DNA of 53,474 nt from Escherichia coli. GTDB lineage: Bacteria > Pseudomonadota > Gammaproteobacteria > Enterobacterales > Enterobacteriaceae. The position numbers and the translations under genes were made by a program. The stretch lies in NCBI GenBank assembly GCA_017639185.1, contig GCA_017639185.1_4892.1; one strand, 5' to 3'. Positions 19,041 through 31,886 of this stretch are shown piece by piece; the stretch's first letter is position 1; every line of letters begins with the position of its first letter. The notes under the pieces are model-generated. The model was not told the origin of the DNA, did not search any database, and saw only the letters and a program-made list of their open reading frames with translations.

Positions 19041-19518
19041 CTAAAAAGCCCCCAGTAGTGTCAGATAAAAGCGAGTTCATTACGTCTTGTGGCAGTATCA
19101 CAGGATGGTTACCTGTTTCGATTTTTGGCTTATGTTTTGGCGCTTTTTTGCGCTCCATGTGCTCATCATGGGCCTTACAAATGGCATTTACGATGAAATC
19201 GTGCTGATATGCGTACCATTCATCGTTTTCTGGGTCGTATTTAAGCCCTACATAGTTCATCAGCGATGACATTACGTGAATGCCTTCGTGGGAAATGGTG
19301 TTGTACTTCAGGTCGTCTGGGTGGTACAGTTCGACGACGATTAACAGGTACGGATAGCTAACGCGAGAGAATGTAAAGGTAGATGCATTACGCGTTTCCC
19401 GGTCATTCCAGTTGCCAAAATCAGGCAAATCCATCAGTTTTTGGAGCTCTTCGTGCTCTTTTTCGCTACAAACGATAGCCAATTGAGGCGGATATGGCTC
19501 TAATTGAACAATTTTCAT
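19033..19518 (-). CDS. HExxH zinc metallopeptidase-like protein
   Basis: Contains SHEGIHV (HExxH). First gene of the leftward arm, next to the control region. Start taken at ATG 19518 (track start 19530 is GTG). Confidence 0.4.
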   Translation of the reverse strand: MKIVQLEPYPPQLAIVCSEKEHEELQKLMDLPDFGNWNDRETRNASTFTFSRVSYPYLLIVVELYHPDDLKYNTISHEGIHVMSSLMNYVGLKYDPENDEWYAYQHDFIVNAICKAHDEHMERKKAPKHKPKIETGNHPVILPQDVMNSLLSDTTGGFLGD

Positions 19519-19755
19519 AATGTTACCCACAAGTAGGAGACCGTGAGGCCGTTTGATGATTCACATTAATGATAGCGCGTGGAGGAGAGAAAGTACACCA
19601 CTTTTTAGTGAGTGTCTACACAATTTCCGAAAAATATAAAAAAATTTTAGAGGGGCTTCACTTATTATTGTGTTAAGCAAAAGGTTAGCTCCTGCCGTAT
19701 TACTCTGATGATGATTGGTCCTGATAAGGAGAAAATACCAAAAAATAAAAAAAAT

Positions 19756-19828
19756 TCCGCTGGCTCCTGGCGGGTAGCACCCTTGCGAAATTACCCCCCG
19801 CCGCACCTATTTCGATTGAAATGATTAC
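19756..19828 (+). repeat. control-region repeat unit A1
   Basis: About 70 bp, roughly 70% identical by eye to the unit at 19933..20003. Shared blocks CGGCTCCT, GCACCC, ACCCCCGCCG, ATTT.GATTGA, ATTAC. Confidence 0.6.
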
Positions 19829-19932
19829 TATGGTAACTATTGCGATTGATACAATTACCGTGTGAACTACTTCGGCCGTTATAGTACAAAGCGTCTATAA
19901 TTCAGATTGAAATTATATTTTTATAAATAATT

Positions 19933-20003
19933 TCGCCGGCTCCTTTAAGTGGCACCCCTACGTTACTATAACCCCCGCCGACCATTTTGGATTGAGTAAT
20001 TAC
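19933..20003 (+). repeat. control-region repeat unit A2
   Basis: Second copy of the unit at 19756..19828. Confidence 0.6.
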
Positions 20004-20149
20004 ATGCGAAACTATATCAATTGCATATGAGAACCACTCTCAATCGCAAGTGATTATCATTTCTAAAAACTTGCATAAACTTGCAATTCTTTTATGTACA
20101 ATCAATAGCGATTGGTCTATTATATATTTATTGAATGTGATGACTGATT

Positions 20150-20166
20150 GACCAGTCTAACTGGTC
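20150..20166. promoter_or_regulatory. perfect palindrome (candidate operator)
   Basis: GACCAGT-CTA-ACTGGTC, 7-bp arms. Overlaps a TTGACC -35-like hexamer. Confidence 0.45.
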
Positions 20167-20312
20167 TGGAGGATATTGGTATGGTTTAGATTTGGTAGGT
20201 AGTACTTAACCAGTCAACAGGTACATCTGGTAGATGTCAATGGTACCTTTTGCTCTTTAACAATTTGGTAACATGTTTCTTGTTGATAGTAACACTAGTA
20301 ATAGTTTCAACC

Positions 20313-20338
20313 AGTGACTATTGGTATCAATAGTCACT
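20313..20338. promoter_or_regulatory. perfect palindrome (candidate operator upstream of first early gene)
   Basis: AGTGACTATTG-GTAT-CAATAGTCACT, 11-bp arms with 4-bp spacer, about 30 bp upstream of the ATG at 20367. Confidence 0.5.
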
Positions 20339-20366
20339 CCTGGAAACTAATACAAAGGTAACTATT

Positions 20367-20669
20367 ATGAAACTGAACAATATCACGTCTGACGTAGAAA
20401 TGCAAGTCACAATCATGTCAATAGTTGAAGACATGCGCCAAGTGTGTATTGAAAGCAACATCTGTTATGATAACGTACAGCAATTATTTGTTGAACTTAT
20501 TACAGGTGCTGAAATAACTGATAATAAACTCTTGATTGACTTGGTCCGCGAAAGACTGATCTTAATTGGCGAAAACTTTGCGGCAGATGGCTTTAATGAA
20601 ATTTATCATGATGACTTCAGGCATTTGTTGAAAGTCGTACAAGCTGTTGAAAACGCAAGCGCGAAGTGA
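20367..20669 (+). CDS. early hypothetical protein
   Basis: 100-aa ORF, first gene right of the control region. AAAGG RBS. Confidence 0.5.
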   Translation: MKLNNITSDVEMQVTIMSIVEDMRQVCIESNICYDNVQQLFVELITGAEITDNKLLIDLVRERLILIGENFAADGFNEIYHDDFRHLLKVVQAVENASAK

Positions 20670-20762
20670 TTTCAATCATGACAACTTGACAAAAGTTGTC
20701 ATGTTTGGACTTACTTGCCAAGGATTGGCGCTTATCAAAATTCTATCAACGAGGATACATCA

Positions 20763-21332
20763 ATGACAACTATCAACTACGTTTACCTGACTTCCGCTTT
20801 TTCTGTCGAGTCTGTGAAATCTGGTCTGACTACTGAAAGTCTTGGCACTATTGTAGTGCAGATGGATAGTCTTCAGTACTTTGCCAATAACCAGATCATT
20901 AAGATGATTAAGTCGCTTAATGATGAAAGTTCTGTAAGTGTCAAAGACTCTAAAGAAGTGCTGGTGAAGGCTTTGTTTGACGAGCTGAACCAACTGGAAG
21001 TTGAAGAAGTCAAAGTTGCGACAACACGAGCATCCGCTGGTGGCTCTCGCAAATCGTCATCTGGTCCGTCAACTAAAGATACCTGCTATCTGGTGTTCAA
21101 AGATTACAACTTGATGGATAAAGAAGATTCCAAATTGGCGCTCGCTGATGCGATGAAAGCTTGCGGAATGGAAGCGGATGATATTAGAGCAAAACGTGTT
21201 ATCCAGTCATATATGTCATACTACCGGAACGATGTAAAATCTGGTAAAGTGACTGATGGCAAATCAGTAACTGGCAAAAAACCTGATACTGAAGTAAAAC
21301 CTGAAACTGAAGCACAAGAAACTGAAGAGTAA
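20763..21332 (+). CDS. early hypothetical protein with acidic/Lys-rich tail
   Basis: Start at ATG 20763 (GAGGA RBS) rather than track start 20715. C-terminus KPDTEVKPETEAQETEE. Confidence 0.5.
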   Translation: MTTINYVYLTSAFSVESVKSGLTTESLGTIVVQMDSLQYFANNQIIKMIKSLNDESSVSVKDSKEVLVKALFDELNQLEVEEVKVATTRASAGGSRKSSSGPSTKDTCYLVFKDYNLMDKEDSKLALADAMKACGMEADDIRAKRVIQSYMSYYRNDVKSGKVTDGKSVTGKKPDTEVKPETEAQETEE

Positions 21333-21398
21333 TTTTTGAGATGGCGCTCAAGTAGTGCCATCAATGAAAGTTATTCACAATCAACAGGAGAGAGAAAC

Positions 21399-21557
21399 AT
21401 GCTTAAAATTAAACTGACCAAAGACCAGGCGATGGCCTTGCGTGATATGATGATTGAGTTAGAGAAGATGGGCACTTTTTCTGATAGTTCTCACACTTCA
21501 ACTCTTGATTATATTGTTGAAGCCATTGACGACAAATTTTCAGGTTCTGAGGAGTAA
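21399..21557 (+). CDS. small early protein
   Basis: 52-aa ORF. ATG preceded by the 22-bp initiation block ATCAACAGGAGAGAGAAACATG. Confidence 0.45.
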   Translation: MLKIKLTKDQAMALRDMMIELEKMGTFSDSSHTSTLDYIVEAIDDKFSGSEE

Positions 21558-21562
21558 TCAAA

Positions 21563-21820
21563 ATGACTGACATTGAGATGAAAAAAGAACTGGACTTTTA
21601 TGCTGAGCAGTATTGGGCTGAATGGGATGAAGGTTCACAAGAATTTGCGGAACTGGTGATAGATTCAGGAATTGATGAAGTGCGCCAACACGCCTACATC
21701 ATCAACATGAATCTGGCGTCAATTATGGGTATCATCGCCAGCGAATTTTCTGATGGCGAGCGGGACCATGAAGACGTTGTAAGACTGGCAAAAGTTATGG
21801 CTTGGGTGGATGCATTATGA
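21563..21820 (+). CDS. small strongly acidic early protein
   Basis: 85 aa with about 20 Asp+Glu and 6 Lys+Arg by eye. Confidence 0.5.
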   Translation: MTDIEMKKELDFYAEQYWAEWDEGSQEFAELVIDSGIDEVRQHAYIINMNLASIMGIIASEFSDGERDHEDVVRLAKVMAWVDAL

Positions 21821-21990
21821 AAGACCTGAAATTGACTGAAGACGAATTGGCGCACCTGATTGAATTACTGGAATCAAATGCCCAAATTGTGAAAGATCAA
21901 ATATCTGATGCTGTTGGTGGTTCCAAAGAGTTTGATAACTTGATGGAAGATTTCCGGCTGACAATTCAGATCGCAACAAAGTTAGCATAG
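21817..21990 (+). CDS. small early protein
   Basis: ATG overlaps the upstream stop (ATGA at 21817..21820). 57 aa. Confidence 0.45.
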   Translation: MKDLKLTEDELAHLIELLESNAQIVKDQISDAVGGSKEFDNLMEDFRLTIQIATKLA

Positions 21991-22058
21991 TTTCAACAAT
22001 GAACTGTCCAAAGTTGTGATAGTTCATTTTTGAAATTATATCAACAGGAGAGAGAAAC

Positions 22059-22448
22059 ATGTACAGTGCAAAATGCGAAGATGGTATCTATACCGTATAT
22101 TGTGACGGTAAAGTACTCAAAGTTCTGCCAAACGCCTTCAAGTTTGAGCAATTCATGACGGTGTTGTGGGAGAGCCAGGAGATTAGTCGGGAAGACATTA
22201 TTGACCTGATGAATCCCTTGATGGGGTACCATCCAATTCGTGAGTTTGACAGTCGTCCAACTTGGTACAAGCTGGAAGATGGCAAAGTCTGGGAACAAGC
22301 CTGGGACAGATTTGAAGGTGGTTACGGCCACTGGACGGTTTACGTCGATGGTGATGATGCCCAACGCTACTGGGAAGCAATCAAAAATTGTGCGACCCGG
22401 GACGTGACTGATCCGGAATACGACGAGTCAAAATTTGAGGTCAAGTGA
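22059..22448 (+). CDS. acidic early protein
   Basis: 129 aa. Same 22-bp initiation block as the gene at 21399. Confidence 0.5.
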   Translation: MYSAKCEDGIYTVYCDGKVLKVLPNAFKFEQFMTVLWESQEISREDIIDLMNPLMGYHPIREFDSRPTWYKLEDGKVWEQAWDRFEGGYGHWTVYVDGDDAQRYWEAIKNCATRDVTDPEYDESKFEVK

Positions 22449-22648
22449 TGCCACTAGTCAAATTTACGACGGTAGACCTTGCCCATGGATTGCCACCCAA
22501 AGCTGAGCAAAAATTCTTGACAGTTGAGGAGTGGCATATCTGGTGCCAGTCAGCTCTAAAATCTGGGGCTAAACGCACTAATGGTGGAAAAGTGTTTACT
22601 CGCTTCAATAAAGAGTGTATAATAGTAGTTCAGGTAATGATGGAGTGA
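22448..22648 (+). CDS. small early protein
   Basis: ATG at 22448 overlaps the upstream stop (TGATG). Confidence 0.4.
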   Translation: MPLVKFTTVDLAHGLPPKAEQKFLTVEEWHIWCQSALKSGAKRTNGGKVFTRFNKECIIVVQVMME

Positions 22649-22897
22649 TATTAATCAAGTCCTGGTACTGACAGGGCTTGATTAAAAGCTGGTAATTGAT
22701 TCAATCCTGAGGATTTGCCAAAAGTCCTCATGATTGAATTAACCCACAAGTGGAGGCCTTATGGTCCGATGTAAACATGTTGTTGAGTATTCTGTTGTGA
22801 ATCCTGCATATGCTGAAGGTCGGGCTATGAGGAAGCTGGTTGGGATCTTTCTGATAATTCTTATGGTATTGGCTTATGTTTTCTAAGGATGATTTAT

Positions 22898-23065
22898 ATG
22901 ACATTGCTCGACGTGTTAATCAACGCGATTTATCTGGTGTTACCGATCTTTTTTCTGCCGGCACTTCTGACGATGCGGTATTACGCGAAGCGGAGCGGCG
23001 CCAAGCAGAAATACAAAGAACTGCAAGCTGCTGGAATTATCAACCCCCGAAAACTGTACCGTTAA
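22898..23065 (+). CDS. small predicted membrane protein (alternative to track ORF 22876..23121)
   Basis: Hand translation MTLLDVLINAIYLVLPIFFLPALLTMRYYAKRSGAKQKYKELQAAGIINPRKLYR. AAGGA RBS 8 nt upstream. One hydrophobic helix. Confidence 0.35.
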   Translation: MTLLDVLINAIYLVLPIFFLPALLTMRYYAKRSGAKQKYKELQAAGIINPRKLYR

Positions 23066-23120
23066 CCTGGGTTGACATGACAATTTGGTTATTGAATAAA
23101 CTTGGAATAAGGAGCAAATA

Positions 23121-23300
23121 ATGTTTAAATTCTTACAACGTAACCCGGTCAAAGGTGGCATGCAATACTGGGTGGATATTCATGGCGGTGAGTATATGAT
23201 GATCGTCCGCGATGGTAAACCTGCTGAAAGCTCTTTCGCTAAAGGTTGCAACGTTTACAACCAACTGTTTGAGTTCCTGGTTGAAGGCGATTACTTGTGA
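23121..23300 (+). CDS. small early protein (59 aa, below track threshold)
   Basis: ATG at 23121 preceded by AAGGAG. Translation MFKFLQRNPVKGGMQYWVDIHGGEYMMIVRDGKPAESSFAKGCNVYNQLFEFLVEGDYL. Confidence 0.5.
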   Translation: MFKFLQRNPVKGGMQYWVDIHGGEYMMIVRDGKPAESSFAKGCNVYNQLFEFLVEGDYL

Positions 23301-23482
23301 TTGGCTTAATCCTGGCAACATGTGTGGCTACTCATGATTGTAGTTACAAAATTGTTGAATCCAACCCTGAATGGACTACCGTTGAACAATGTGCCGCCGA
23401 TAGTCCATACACCTTACTGAATCTTGGTATTATCCCTGCCAAAAATCAGCGTGTTATTTGTGACGAGCTGAAACAAGATTAA
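23297..23482 (+). CDS. small protein with N-terminal hydrophobic segment
   Basis: GTG start overlapping the upstream stop. N-terminus IGLILATCVATHDCS. Confidence 0.35.
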   Translation: MIGLILATCVATHDCSYKIVESNPEWTTVEQCAADSPYTLLNLGIIPAKNQRVICDELKQD

Positions 23483-23910
23483 TTGACGTGATATTGAGTG
23501 CCGGGCGCAACGTAATAGTTGTAGACCCGGCAAAATTGTTCCCATGTTAATTCTACTAGACCCACAAAGAGGCGATTTGATGCCTCGTTAAAAGTCGTGC
23601 CACTTGGAAAACAGTCAATCACATCAGCCTTATTCATCACCACGGTAGGCTGTTTTCTTGGTAGTTCGTATATCAGCACTGGCATCTTGTTCTGAGCCTT
23701 TGCCGATGCCGCACACTGTCTCCACCATGTTCCGATAGACTTGGTATTGTGCTTCTTCAGTTCAACACTGAAAAACGGCACACCCAGCAAGTCATCCCCG
23801 CCATTAATAGACTGTTGAAGATTGCGCTCAACAGTTAATCCGAACGAGCTATTAAATTTTTTAGCCATTTTACGCTCAAAGTTCTGCCCCTTGGCTCTAA
23901 TATTTACCAT
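23479..23910 (-). CDS. PD-(D/E)XK nuclease, Hjc-like Holliday-junction resolvase candidate
   Basis: KGQNFERK...GGDDLL...FSVELKK pattern (E, D, ExK spacing) read by eye. Stop codon shares bases with the convergent plus-strand stop at 23479..23482. Confidence 0.35.
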   Translation of the reverse strand: MVNIRAKGQNFERKMAKKFNSSFGLTVERNLQQSINGGDDLLGVPFFSVELKKHNTKSIGTWWRQCAASAKAQNKMPVLIYELPRKQPTVVMNKADVIDCFPSGTTFNEASNRLFVGLVELTWEQFCRVYNYYVAPGTQYHVN

Positions 23911-24410
23911 GCACTGTTTCCTTTTAAAATCTGGACTACGCGGTCCAAAGAGTTACCATTTTCTACTTGTTTTTTCCATACTGTCATAATTCTTGACTTA
24001 AGCCTTGCTCTTCCGTGGCAGTCAGCTGTAGCATACGCACGGAGTAAGTCTATTTCATCAGACAGTAGATCCAGCGCTGGTTGAAGCTCTGGTGCAACAT
24101 AATAACCATTCCCACGAATGGTTGGGAATACTTCTTCGTATGCCCAGCGCTGAAATGCTTTAGCTGATTCAAGATGTGAACCGAATATAGCCTGATAAAT
24201 ACCAGGTTCAGTTACCCATACGGCTCCTTTGTCATCAGTAATTTTATAATCGCTGTCTAACCTTTTATAAAGTTTTTTCGAGTGACTGTAGCCTAGCGCT
24301 TTAGATAAATCGCTTCCTTTAACAACAATGAGGGGAACCATTTTGGTTCCTCTATTAATTGATGAAAATGTGATATTTTTACCTTCAAATACTTTTACAA
24401 TTGGATTCAT
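23904..24410 (-). CDS. Bro-N domain protein (antirepressor-like)
   Basis: N-terminal FEGKNITFSSINRG...VKGSDLSKALGYSHSKKLYKRLDSDYK matches the Bro-N pattern. Start uncertain (24410, 24425 or 24473). Confidence 0.5.
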   Translation of the reverse strand: MNPIVKVFEGKNITFSSINRGTKMVPLIVVKGSDLSKALGYSHSKKLYKRLDSDYKITDDKGAVWVTEPGIYQAIFGSHLESAKAFQRWAYEEVFPTIRGNGYYVAPELQPALDLLSDEIDLLRAYATADCHGRARLKSRIMTVWKKQVENGNSLDRVVQILKGNSAW

Positions 24411-24671
24411 AGTTGCACAACTCATCTGTTGAATAATAAATATATTATAACACACACTAACATACAATAACATAGTAAATATCACCGAAGCTTGCCACGC
24501 CTGGCTTTAGACATGCCTACGAATTATTTATCAGTCCGGTTTTTTATTATTTTTCGCCAGCGTAAATTTTTTTTCATCCGGTTCTGATATTAATAAAGAG
24601 ATAAACCGGATCATACATATAGACGCCTCTAAGTAGCTGTTTTTATTACTTCTAATATAATTAATAATATA

Positions 24672-24692
24672 TAATAATAATAATAATAATAA
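24672..24692. repeat. (AAT)n microsatellite inside an AT-rich intergenic region
   Basis: ATAATAATAATAATAATAATAA read directly. Confidence 0.8.
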
Positions 24693-24869
24693 ATAAATAT
24701 ATACCCCCTTTTATCCGGTACTTGGATCCCCTTATTACCCCCCTTTTTCTTTATAAAGGGCTCCATATATTTACTAATTCATGTAAAAAGAAAAGAGTAT
24801 ATAAAACAGTAGCTTAAGTGCACTTAATTCGAAAAACACGGTTTATTTATTCCATAACTAGTCTACCGG

Positions 24870-24922
24870 AGCAAAAAGAGTATATAAAATAAGGGCTTAC
24901 GTATTTTACTACATAAGCCCTT
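24870..24922 (-). terminator. intrinsic terminator after the primase-helicase gene
   Basis: Inverted repeat AAGGGCTTA (24891..24899) / TAAGCCCTT (24914..24922) immediately after the stop at 24927. T-rich run follows on the minus strand. Confidence 0.55.
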
Positions 24923-24926
24923 GATT

Positions 24927-27461
24927 TTACTTAAGTTTCTTGGCTTCGTCGTATCCCCGTTCAGTTAAACAGTAGATATTTGCCGATTTCCCTCTTGTGG
25001 GTTTGTATATTTGAACTGCTAAATAGTCCTGGTCAATCATATCCTGCAGCATACCGTCAATAACCTTGTTATTAGCGGTTATATTAAAGCCATAATTGGA
25101 CTTGAACCAACTTAATGATTGCCGGATAGCATATATGCTAAGCCCGTTCATTTTCAGATGGTCTTCCCGTAAGCTTCTTACAACACCTTCAGGATAATGC
25201 TTAACAATACCGTTCCAGCCTCTTTTGGTGTAAAGGGCCAAAATGTCCCTGTAGACTTTGAGGAAGCCGTCAACTACTTCAGCGTTGGTAGTCGGAGGTG
25301 CGACTATCCTGCTTGTGTTATTGACCCAGGCGGTTATACAACGAAGAACGTATTTGTAAGCCCATTCGATGTTGTCCCTGGTCATTACAGGAGCATCCCA
25401 GTTGTCGAGTAAGCCAATCAGTGCTGCTATGTTGAATACATACTCACCCATTCGGCCCACAAAGGCAGATGCTACTTCGTTGTCCCTGTAATACTGGCGC
25501 ATGTCATTAATATTGCACTGGTATTCGTACAGGAAGTCGTCATCATCCGATTCGTCGTAAATAGGAATCGGGTCATGCCTTAGTTTACCGTTAGGCGGGA
25601 TAGCATTCACATAAGCGATTGCTTCCAGCTTCTCAATCAGTTCCTTTGAAAAGGATGTACGGCGAATCTGCTGGCGACGTCCTACTTTCTCAGGTTTGGC
25701 AAACTCCGCTCGTTCATAGTTAGGGATGAACAGGAAGCGGGGCAAAAAGCCACTTGAGAAGTCTTGCTTGCGGGTGTTGTCAAGAATAAGCTCTTGAGTG
25801 GAGTCACCCAGGATAGAGTAGCACGGTTCGCTTACTGTCTTGACATCATTGTCAGCATTAGCACGTTTGATACCTGTCAGTATACCGCCAACCTTACGCT
25901 TGGTTGAAGCGTCCATCAGAGCTTTCTGAAAGTTGTCCGGGTTGTTAGGATTCATGCGTAAGCCTGAACCTAAAGCCAGACCAAATTCAGGATAGAACAG
26001 CTGGACTGAATGGTATGACGGGTTGGACATCAGTTCAGCAAACGTCCTGGTTGCAAAAGTCTGCTCCCTTGGAATACGATTAAGGCTGATAGGCGATGTG
26101 TCAGGTAAACCAGCCTGGATTTGTGGGAACATTTCGGTATACAACGATTTACCGATTGATGAACCACCCACAAGAATGATGTTGGTTACCAGGAAGTTAG
26201 CATGACCGCCTACTGGACAAACATACTTACGACCAGCGCAGTTGCTCAGGATGTTAAGAGCTGTGCCAATTGCATAGTCGTTAACCCTGTTAGCCGGAGA
26301 TATGTTATCCTGTATCTCAGCAATAAGCCGTTTAAACCCGGACGGGGCCGTTCTGACAAATACATCAGATGGCAGAATATCGTCGTTGACTTTGAACTCA
26401 ACGTTCTCAGCCAGTGATACCCCAGAATTCTTGGCTAACTCTTTGTTAATGTCAAGAGCAAACTTGGTCTTAACGAATAAGCCGTCACGTTGCATCTCTT
26501 TCAGCACAGTCTTACCGACACGACTGAACCACTGATGGTACTTGTCAACAGACAGGCTACGCCGGCTAGGACGACGACCTTCGTATGCTGCAGCTTTGCT
26601 GGCCATAAAGATGCGTTGTGTAACTTCATAGTTACGGGTTACACGAAGCAAGTCTTTTAAGATACGGCTTAAACGTTCAGAACCGTCATTACTCACACCA
26701 ACACCGTCTGGTGCATGCTCATTCAGATAGTGTTCTAAAGCCCAGCGAGTATTGTCGGCTAACTGTTCGTACAGCTCTTTGTCATACTCTTCGCCACGGT
26801 CTTCGTCTTGCTCAAACTCAACATCAATGTCAGGTGCGCTTGATTCAAGAAAGAACTTCTCAATTGCTGCATGCCATTCACGGGCTGAAACAGGATTAGC
26901 ATTGAACTCACTCAACACGTTGCCCGTCATTACCAGGAACATCTCAGCCTTCTGGATTTTGATGTCCAGTTGTTCGTCTTTCTCTTTAGATGTTGCTGCA
27001 GTCCAGGGTAAAGGGATTGCAATGTGTTGCCCTTTGCCAGAGATTGACGTCTCGGCATAAGCACCACGGGTCCCCTCAATTATCGCCTTGTGGGTAGCTT
27101 CAATGTCTGGGTTATCTTCATGGTTGTCCAGGTCAACAAAGTACCACTGGCGAGGAACAACCAAAGCCGGCACAAAGGTGATATTCCCCTGCACAGCTTT
27201 AATCTTCATTTCACGATTGCGAATACAACGTGCCAGGGCGTCGTCGAAAGTCATCCACTCTTCAGGCACTGTTGTGCTGAAGGAACGGCCTGATGGCGCT
27301 CTTGCAGGTTTCTTCGGTTTGGATTGAACTTCAAGAGTCTCGTCTTCGTACGTTAGCTCAAAGATAGCCCAGCGCTTCATATCTTTGAAGACTTGGGGAA
27401 TCCCTTCTGGCTTAAAGTATTTCAGACCGAGAATATCACTCGGCTGACTCGTCATTGTCAT
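24927..27461 (-). CDS. primase-helicase (archaeo-eukaryotic primase N-terminal domain plus C-terminal P-loop NTPase; D5/P4-like architecture)
   Basis: AEP motifs YFVDLDNHED (DxD) and SISGKGQHIAI (sGxGxH). Walker A LVGGSSIGKS mid-protein. 844 aa. Confidence 0.6.
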   Translation of the reverse strand: MTMTSQPSDILGLKYFKPEGIPQVFKDMKRWAIFELTYEDETLEVQSKPKKPARAPSGRSFSTTVPEEWMTFDDALARCIRNREMKIKAVQGNITFVPALVVPRQWYFVDLDNHEDNPDIEATHKAIIEGTRGAYAETSISGKGQHIAIPLPWTAATSKEKDEQLDIKIQKAEMFLVMTGNVLSEFNANPVSAREWHAAIEKFFLESSAPDIDVEFEQDEDRGEEYDKELYEQLADNTRWALEHYLNEHAPDGVGVSNDGSERLSRILKDLLRVTRNYEVTQRIFMASKAAAYEGRRPSRRSLSVDKYHQWFSRVGKTVLKEMQRDGLFVKTKFALDINKELAKNSGVSLAENVEFKVNDDILPSDVFVRTAPSGFKRLIAEIQDNISPANRVNDYAIGTALNILSNCAGRKYVCPVGGHANFLVTNIILVGGSSIGKSLYTEMFPQIQAGLPDTSPISLNRIPREQTFATRTFAELMSNPSYHSVQLFYPEFGLALGSGLRMNPNNPDNFQKALMDASTKRKVGGILTGIKRANADNDVKTVSEPCYSILGDSTQELILDNTRKQDFSSGFLPRFLFIPNYERAEFAKPEKVGRRQQIRRTSFSKELIEKLEAIAYVNAIPPNGKLRHDPIPIYDESDDDDFLYEYQCNINDMRQYYRDNEVASAFVGRMGEYVFNIAALIGLLDNWDAPVMTRDNIEWAYKYVLRCITAWVNNTSRIVAPPTTNAEVVDGFLKVYRDILALYTKRGWNGIVKHYPEGVVRSLREDHLKMNGLSIYAIRQSLSWFKSNYGFNITANNKVIDGMLQDMIDQDYLAVQIYKPTRGKSANIYCLTERGYDEAKKLK

Positions 27462-31655: not shown

Positions 31656-31886
31656 ATGAGCATCCAAACTATCGAACAATTTCGTTCAACATGTAAGCTT
31701 GTCGCAAAAGATAACTGCGATTTATGGACATATGGCGTTCATCATGACTGGCACATCGTCGAGTCATTTGATGAACCCACAACGTACTCCGTCTGTGGCG
31801 AGGAGTTCGACACTCTGGAAGAAGCCGAAGAAGCTCTTTATCGTATGTATTGCGACGAAGAATCACTTTACGAGGACTATCATTAA
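31656..31886 (+). CDS. small acidic Cys-rich protein
   Basis: ATG 31656 after GGAGAGAG. 76 aa. Stop overlaps the next start (TAATG). Confidence 0.45.
   Translation: MSIQTIEQFRSTCKLVAKDNCDLWTYGVHHDWHIVESFDEPTTYSVCGEEFDTLEEAEEALYRMYCDEESLYEDYH

Follow-up and report, generated by a model that had tools for sequence, protein, structure and literature searches.

The window analysed here, a stretch of 53,474 nucleotides (nt) from an Escherichia coli assembly (GCA_017639185.1, contig GCA_017639185.1_4892.1), is by sequence similarity a Rosemountvirus-type Salmonella/E. coli myovirus, and contains a plus-strand operon of 11-12 very small genes (20367..23482; 41-189 amino acids, aa). The genes that were flagged in a first-pass annotation of the window form the promoter-proximal half of this operon, and include the gene of a strongly acidic protein of 85 aa (p85; 21563..21820). 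The explanation that we favour for the operon as a whole, with about even confidence, is an accessory set of immediate-early genes that serves host takeover or counter-defence, is located in a direct terminal repeat (DTR) and includes p85 as an inhibitor of a basic host protein. The early timing, the host target and the mechanism of the p85 operon are the parts that we infer. The first-pass annotation had read an early, host-takeover position from these genes, which is supported by the DTR location, a conserved leader, homologues at contig ends and conserved acidity.

The phage and the reality of its small genes

By megablast, the region 20300-23500 matched 62 related phage records, the closest being Salmonella phage yarpen (Rosemountvirus; 98.6% identity, 100% query coverage). 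Rosemountviruses are isolated widely, as candidates for the biocontrol and therapy of Salmonella and pathogenic E. coli, and their early genes all carry the annotation 'hypothetical'. The open reading frames (ORFs) of the first-pass annotation were present where it had placed them, and the same genes are called in relatives. For the p85 gene, three within-genus comparisons of nonsynonymous and synonymous substitution (dN/dS) gave 0/0.083, 0.020/0.177 and 0.005/0.040, i.e. ratios of 0-0.12 and purifying selection. The ratios of its neighbours were well below 1 in most comparisons, with that of the 41-aa gene reaching ~0.64, a value resting on very few substitutions. Because these ORFs are annotated in relatives, have low dN/dS and, in the case of the p85 family, persist at 30-45% identity elsewhere, the flagged acidic ORFs are, on these comparisons, real genes under selection.

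A protein 100% identical to p85 was also found in the record PP583539.1 ('Listeria phage 220426122051', host Listeria monocytogenes), which is evidently a Rosemountvirus; its host label is probably a mis-assignment or the result of contamination.

Location in a putative terminal repeat

The terminal repeat was located through two relatives. The genome of fHy-Eco03 (Rosemountvirus) has an annotated terminal repeat of 3,699 base pairs (bp) with 11 genes, which was identified with PhageTerm and confirmed by restriction digests, and by tblastn the genes of this repeat map to 20763-24101 of the window. In vB_SalM_Sz (hereafter Sz), a closer relative, an identical 4,263-bp segment is found at both ends of the 57,020-bp record. 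The inner boundary of the two repeats coincides, at 19760-19762 of the window, and position 1 of the Sz record (GGCGAAAAAAATAAAAAAGCCGG) is the reverse complement of ~24531-24558, which agrees with the blastn offsets. By homology, a DTR of ~4.8 kb can be placed at ~19762..~24558, which would take in the leader, all of the small genes of the cluster and two genes on the minus strand, and it is through fHy-Eco03 and Sz that the genes of the cluster are assigned to the inside of a terminal repeat. The window itself showed no terminal redundancy, the repeat being present as a single copy. For S144, a phage of the sister genus, direct terminal repeats have also been proposed, and restriction analysis placed its physical ends in an intergenic gap that separates its gene clusters E and A.

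With a repeat at both physical ends, the operon would be carried by the leading DNA end, whichever of the two goes into the cell before the other. This location, together with a conserved leader carrying a sigma-70-like promoter, is the reason for reading the operon as an immediate-early module. The leader is a non-coding, putatively regulatory region of ~600 nt (19762..20366, plus strand), and its part at 19990-20366 has ~80% nt identity across five phages (two genera and a metagenomic relative), the proteins of which are 33-68% identical. A candidate sigma-70 promoter (TGTACA-17-TATTAT) was found at 20095-20123; all five aligned phages share the same -35-like hexamer, with either TATTAT or CATAAT as the -10 hexamer. 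As the promoter consensus scan was weakly enriched (23 sites vs 15.7 expected), the assignment of this site as the promoter of the operon is tentative. The arrangement is one of a run of genes of 41-189 aa with one conserved, sigma-70-like candidate site. Among titles and abstracts mentioning the genus, no transcriptome study of a Rosemountvirus was found.

A hairpin was predicted at the end of the leader (~20284-20366), with a minimum free energy of -31.8 kcal/mol (z -6.2); with its outer stem it extends to the ribosome-binding site and AUG of the first gene. Of its 17 pairs, 3 are compensatory between the two sequence types of the leader. An Rfam scan of 19400-25000 gave zero matches.

Acidity of the cluster

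The six adjacent plus-strand genes of 20367..22448 encode p100 (20367..20669; net charge -9, isoelectric point (pI) 4.43), p189 (20763..21332; 189 aa, net -5, pI 5.03; phrog_9997, of unknown function), p52 (21399..21557; net -5, pI 4.59; phrog_35350), p85, p57 (21817..21990; pI 4.42; phrog_29626) and p129 (22059..22448; 129 aa, 26 D/E vs 15 K/R, net -11, pI 4.54; phrog_37772). The acidity described in the first-pass annotation was borne out. Its estimate of roughly 20 acidic and 6 basic residues in p85 is exact (20 D/E, 6 K/R), p129 is acidic as it had proposed, and in p189, for which it had named the C-terminus, the last 17 residues (KPDTEVKPETEAQETEE) are acidic while the protein as a whole is average. 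It had also counted among the acidic proteins of the cluster a 76-aa protein, p76 (31656..31886, plus strand), which is indeed the most acidic protein of the genome (19 D/E vs 4 K/R, net -15, pI 4.17) but is not a member of the cluster, being located ~8 kb away in the recombination module.

Charges were compared across 66 proteins, those annotated within the first 50 kb of the 52.5-kb genome of yarpen (98.6% identical), which have a mean net charge of -0.023 per residue (standard deviation 0.052). When ranked by net-charge density, p76 was first and p85 second, and 5 of the 6 adjacent genes of 20367..22448 were in the top eight. No other six consecutive genes of the genome are together as acidic as these, with a permutation p of 0.0095 when all genes were shuffled and of 0.029 when small genes were shuffled among small-gene slots. 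The acidity of the cluster is real and moderately non-random. All-vs-all BLASTP, and a comparison by hhalign of the p85 profile with the other proteins of the cluster, found no paralogy among the acidic proteins.

The p85 family and its predicted fold

The p85 gene starts with ATG, preceded by a GAGGAG ribosome-binding site, and its product has a net charge of -14 and a pI of 4.10. When 5.8 billion proteins were searched with p85 by a word-indexed method, its own cluster alone was recovered; when 1.84 billion representatives were scanned exhaustively with HMMER, six further small p85-like proteins were detected, and after profile search the family (phrog_35114) comprised 11 clusters and was phage-only. 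Most of the clusters are on phage-sized contigs (33-54 kb) and a few are on short fragments. Identity to p85 is ~43% in the sister genus Loughboroughvirus and 30-40% in metagenomic phage contigs.

All members of the family have a pI of 4.05-4.45 and keep a W-x-EWDE motif, and the net charge was -8 to -17 in 10/10 members analysed. Of the 20 acidic positions of the reference p85, 6 are conserved in the family. Residues L10, W21, D22, E27, L31, L51 and L85 are invariant in the alignment, and E20, E30, D39, H43 and W81 are near-invariant. The bulk charge of the family is therefore kept while individual charges move, suggesting that selection acts on its electrostatics.

A model of p85 made by AlphaFold2 (AF2) from the single sequence had a predicted local distance difference test score (pLDDT) of 63 and was unfit for fold search. 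The model from a ten-sequence alignment was a five-helix bundle with a pLDDT of 96.1 and a predicted template modelling score (pTM) of 0.85, in which the helices span residues 3-16, 23-34, 37-42, 44-63 and 69-84. The long, central fourth helix is uncharged in p85; because other members of the family carry charged residues there, it is predicted to be a buried core helix and not a membrane span. On this confident model, p85 is predicted to be a compact, soluble, strongly acidic five-helix bundle. The first-pass annotation had accepted that folding as an ordinary enzyme would speak against its proposal, and the model shows no recognisable enzyme fold; no known or enzyme-like fold was among its listed structural matches.

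Searches of family databases gave a similar picture. Pfam had zero matches at E<=1 for 10 cluster proteins and zero at E<=10 for 10 members of the p85 family, and scans of the cluster proteins (up to ten) gave sub-threshold noise alone with NCBIfam and PADLOC, and PHROGs of unknown function alone with PHROGs. Searches of PDB sequences with p85 and p129, as single sequences and as family profiles, found nothing significant. On these searches, p85 is outside every described anti-restriction, DNA-mimic or enzyme family tested. Its family is an uncharacterised small acidic early ORFan, with a fold without detectable relative, and such ORFans of terminal repeats are already known.

Variable slots and acidic replacements in relatives

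The comparative map of the operon showed a conserved core of p189, p57, p66, p41, p81/p55 and p61, with the remaining slots being variable and reshuffled among relatives. In fHy-Eco03, p85, p52 and p100 are all missing. These three genes are accessory on this comparison, which is typical of host-interaction genes. The slot of p100 holds non-homologous acidic mini-proteins in relatives, and most of the non-homologous proteins that are found in variable slots are hyper-acidic (pI 4.05-4.34, one with a net charge of -21). These include proteins of 49 aa (pI 4.05) and 101 aa (net -21) in AEV23, of 49 aa (pI 4.05) and 57 aa (pI 4.34) in Sz, and of 56 aa (gp11, pI 4.05) in fHy-Eco03. Two proteins, of 67 aa (pI 4.9) and 78 aa (pI 6.2), are exceptions to this rule.

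The position of p85 was also found to be shared by distant homologues. A metagenomic Rosemount-like phage has a 33%-identical member in the same slot. In three further contigs with other neighbour genes, the p85-family members are located at most ~1 kb from a contig end, behind a long intergenic stretch, and are among the first genes of same-strand runs of small ORFs. Neighbours of the distant members are again very acidic (98 aa with net -19; 54-55 aa with pI 4.06-4.26).

One family of such neighbours, acidic proteins of ~55 aa with the pattern 'YGQFMKD...IREQLGE..H..V.EWDE', is encoded directly upstream of the p85-family gene in two distant contigs (L012 4776-4940 and L014 749-916). Protein P0027 contains a fusion of the YGQFMKD domain with the C-terminal domain found in the p129 family. 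The fusion and the adjacency suggest that these three small acidic families (YGQFMKD, p85 and p129) may act together. No member of the YGQFMKD family was detectable in the window; p52 was considered as a divergent member of this 55-aa family and was rejected on comparison.

Proposed mechanism and known systems

We propose that the genes of the operon would be delivered on the first-entering DNA end and would be transcribed, as immediate-early genes, from the sigma-70-like promoter behind the conserved leader. The p85 protein would then most likely bind and inhibit a host protein stoichiometrically, by electrostatic complementarity plus a specific Trp-centred contact. The contact patch would consist of the invariant W21, D22 and E27, with the near-invariant E20, E30, D39, H43 and W81. 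The target would most plausibly be a basic protein that binds nucleic acids; nucleoid proteins, RNA polymerase, enzymes of repair or recombination, and nucleases or methyltransferases of defence systems are examples. Like Gp46 of SPO1, p85 would then be a 'loose' DNA mimic and not a rod of the Ocr type.

In function, the closest analogies of the operon would be with the host-takeover module of SPO1 and the pre-early genes of T5/BF23. The SPO1 module resembles the operon in being a block of unusually small genes in a terminal repeat, which in the case of the operon are putatively early. It differs in size (24 genes, compared to ~3 kb and 11-12 genes here), and the operon belongs to another phage lineage with a Gram-negative host and contains neighbours of p85 whose tested homologues were mostly non-toxic. 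Between Gp46, the HU inhibitor of SPO1, and p85, no sequence or structural relatedness was found. The pre-early genes of T5/BF23 are likewise located in direct terminal repeats, in two inversely oriented units with a repeat-rich non-coding border. In the window, the plus-strand operon converges on two minus-strand genes in the repeat, and the conserved border is repeat-rich. The T5/BF23 repeat is longer, however (9.7 kb vs 4.8 kb), and the phage here is a myovirus. No annotation in the Pfam, NCBIfam and PHROG scans linked the operon to A1, A2 or Dmp of T5/BF23, which are set apart by these scans alone.

A homologue of an experimentally toxic protein is found within the same operon. When 32 hypothetical genes of fHy-Eco03 were screened for toxicity in E. 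coli, g05 alone was clearly toxic (next-generation sequencing (NGS) ratio 0.003, plating 0.16), and by tblastn this gene corresponds to 22876..23121 of the window, encoding p81 (plus strand; 68% identical to Gp05). Gp05 shares the operon and the terminal repeat with the acidic cluster. Unlike p85, it is not acidic (net 0 in fHy-Eco03; net +1 for p81 in the window), lies outside the flagged span and comes from a phage without p85.

Several observations weigh against an operon devoted to host takeover. An acidic pI is widespread in this phage, with 36% of the proteins having a pI<5, and the significance of the acidic clustering is moderate (p 0.01-0.03). The DTR of this particular isolate is assigned by homology, the window holding one copy. 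In the toxicity screen, the homologue of p57 (g10; 1.50 / 0.46) was not clearly toxic and was borderline in one assay (plating 0.46), the homologue of the C-terminal domain of p129 (g09; 1.53 / 0.83) was non-toxic, and those of p66 (g08), p59 (g04) and p61 (g03) were not clearly toxic. With these five homologues lacking clear toxicity, most of the module is unlike classical host-shutoff genes. Furthermore, the p189 homologue of fHy-Eco03 (gp07) was detected in purified virions by LC-MS/MS (liquid chromatography with tandem mass spectrometry), therefore not every gene of the operon need be a host-directed effector.

Alternative explanations

It is possible, although we consider it doubtful, that the acidity is incidental and that these are small regulators or adaptors directed at the phage itself, which could act in the timing of early-to-middle transcription, in the control of the neighbouring toxic or membrane genes, or in replication or packaging tied to the repeat. 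Their low pI would then be no more than the usual composition of small, soluble early proteins. The general acidity of the proteome and the lack of toxicity of most tested homologues would fit this possibility. The p85 gene is translationally coupled to the core gene of p57, the start of which overlaps the p85 stop (ATGA), and the operon is surrounded by conserved cis elements and shares its repeat with a PD-(D/E)XK nuclease. The invariant W-D/E/H patch of the p85 family would also suit any specific protein-protein contact. However, the non-homologous replacements that several phages carry in these slots are hyper-acidic too, as are the neighbours of distant homologues, a recurrence that is difficult to account for if charge itself is not under selection. 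The accessory nature of p85 would also be unusual for a core regulatory or packaging role.

A more far-reaching form of the takeover explanation, which we regard as unlikely, is that p85 founds a family of 'loose' DNA mimics with a new fold, and that the DTRs of Rosemountvirus, Loughboroughvirus and their relatives carry an array of exchangeable cassettes for non-homologous, hyper-acidic mini-proteins, each neutralising a different DNA-binding defence or nucleoid protein of the host and all arriving with the DNA that enters first.

The first-pass annotation had favoured DNA-mimic anti-restriction proteins. In its specific form, p85 or other proteins of the cluster would occupy the DNA groove of type I restriction-modification or bacteriophage exclusion (BREX) systems, as Ocr (T7 gp0.3) and ArdA do, shielding the incoming DNA; this we consider improbable. 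p85 does resemble these proteins in being small and very acidic, with a pI that falls in the range of about 3-5 of the DNA-mimic class, a net charge of -14 on 85 residues and a charge that is conserved in its family. Its gene would be on the first-entering DNA, as is the case for Ocr and ArdA, which act by binding and not by catalysis. The terminal-repeat pre-early regions of T5-like phages can hold anti-restriction activity, with the evasion of restriction by T5/BF23 depending on recognition sites outside the terminal repeat.

For p85 itself, however, the searches returned zero positive evidence of such a function, with no match in Pfam, NCBIfam or PADLOC and no significant match in PDB. Pfam includes models of Ocr and ArdA, and neither the cluster proteins nor the 10 family members matched them. 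ArdA and ArdB-KlcA had no match in Pfam or NCBIfam and were not among the listed structural matches of the p85 model, and Ocr was similar to p85 neither by sequence profile nor by fold among those matches. The shape also differs, Ocr and ArdA being elongated dimers that mimic bent B-DNA, whereas the model predicts for p85 a compact bundle of five helices, the central one being uncharged, and not an elongated, DNA-shaped rod, and its invariant residues would form a small patch and not a regular array. In addition, fHy-Eco03 is viable without p85.

The DNA of these phages may also be protected in another way. Among the enzymes tried, fHy-Eco03 DNA was cut by ScaI alone, and the DNA of S144 (Loughboroughvirus) was cut by the AT-specific SspI and PacI alone. 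Such near-general resistance to restriction enzymes implies base modification in this clade, which would make a factor like Ocr less necessary, though not superfluous. Synteny with yarpen places in the window the genes that are annotated in yarpen as a dCMP deaminase, a thymidylate synthase, a dihydrofolate reductase (DHFR)-like protein, a dTMP kinase and a nucleoside triphosphate (NTP) pyrophosphohydrolase, and these five genes could feed a DNA-modification pathway.

That p85 is a small enzyme or metal-binding four-helix bundle, such as a MazG-like all-alpha NTP pyrophosphohydrolase or a ferritin-like protein, is scarcely credible and was rejected, since its conserved E/D/H residues and the superficial likeness of an ELGEL motif in helix 2 stand against the absence of any p85-family match to the MazG, PRA-PH, dUTPase_2 and ferritin models of Pfam even at E<=10, a profile search of PDB sequences that found no such enzyme, and the lack of conservation, in the p85 alignment, of the second catalytic motif by which MazG-type enzymes are defined.

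Other genes and features of the repeat

Immediately after the acidic run, the operon continues on the plus strand with a core gene encoding the basic p66 (22448..22648; pI 9.14; phrog_35966), a core gene encoding a small membrane protein, p41 (22761..22886), the p81 gene, and finally the genes of p59 (23121..23300) and p61 (23297..23482). The p129 protein was found to have two domains, an optional N-terminal part (residues 1-55) and a conserved C-terminal domain (IREFDSRPTWYKLEDGK...TRDVTDPEYDESKFEV), and its homologue in fHy-Eco03 (g09) consists of the C-terminal domain alone. In the core gene of p189, a short tandem repeat (21274..21307; KPDTEV/KPETEA) lies within the part for the acidic, repetitive C-terminal tail and is annotated as a repeat_region in yarpen; with this tail, the length of p189 varies among relatives (186-190 aa).

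A second ORF of 55 aa (22898..23065), which is transmembrane-like with a basic tail, is located wholly inside the p81 gene in an alternative frame, and neither frame is interrupted in divergent relatives. Conservation is higher for the embedded peptide (69-80% aa identity) than for the 81-aa frame (62-68%). Within the overlap, substitutions accumulate at what is the third codon position when the 55-aa frame is read (22/45, 15/29 and 20/37), while in the 53 nt past the 55-aa stop they are at the third position of the 81-aa frame in 2/3 comparisons (7/9 and 7/10). The two ORFs are candidates for a pair of overlapping genes or for a product of frameshifting. The yarpen RefSeq record annotates the 55-aa frame alone and fHy-Eco03 the 81-aa frame alone, and the toxic Gp05 clone of fHy-Eco03 necessarily also held the embedded 55-aa peptide.

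The two minus-strand genes of the repeat encode a PD-(D/E)XK endonuclease (23479..23910; PF24608, 'RusA-like' in relatives), which is convergent with the cluster, and a Bro-N domain protein ('Ant-like'; 23904..24410) just inside the right DTR edge. The Bro-N gene is absent from Sz, where 76 nt are found instead, and the region is unannotated in the yarpen RefSeq record; the 65-aa gp01 of fHy-Eco03 matches the C-terminal end alone of the Bro-N protein (40% identity). Since the presence of this gene varies among relatives, the right edge of the repeat looks like an insertion hotspot.

Both inferred DTR junctions (~19762 and ~24558) read CGCT|GGC on opposite strands, each beside an A/T-rich tract. 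The left junction is TTCCGCT|GGCTCC, and the right junction, as its reverse complement, is CGCT|GGCGAAAAA. This CGCT|GGC junction may be a motif for cutting by the terminase. When the window was searched for the DTR-edge motif, the left edge alone matched, the right edge having been located from the start of the Sz record. About 75 nt from the left junction recur imperfectly at 19925-19995 (GGCTCCT...CCCCCGCCG...GATTGA), and GATTGA-type 17-mers are present at 19809, 19839 and 19900.

The acidic protein of the recombination module

Outside the repeat, the p76 gene is directly upstream of, and overlaps, a Sak4-like AAA_24 gene, which is followed by the gene of a single-stranded DNA-binding protein (SSB). 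It is a core gene throughout the clade (61/61 related records), and its product ends in an acidic-aromatic tail (EESLYEDYH) and had no PHROG, Pfam or NCBIfam match. Based on this gene context, a role of p76 in the recombination module seems likelier than one in host takeover.

Significance

The proteins p85, p52, p57, p100 and p129, and their replacements in relatives, form a candidate set for screening for takeover and anti-defence activity. If p85 is not a DNA-mimic-like inhibitor, it would be an ordinary example of acidic early ORFans. If it is such an inhibitor, it would represent a new fold for a class with few members, and could explain differences in host range between near-identical phages with and without p85. 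If, in addition, the terminal repeats do carry arrays of exchangeable acidic cassettes, they would be a compact and minable source of anti-defence proteins for Enterobacteriaceae.

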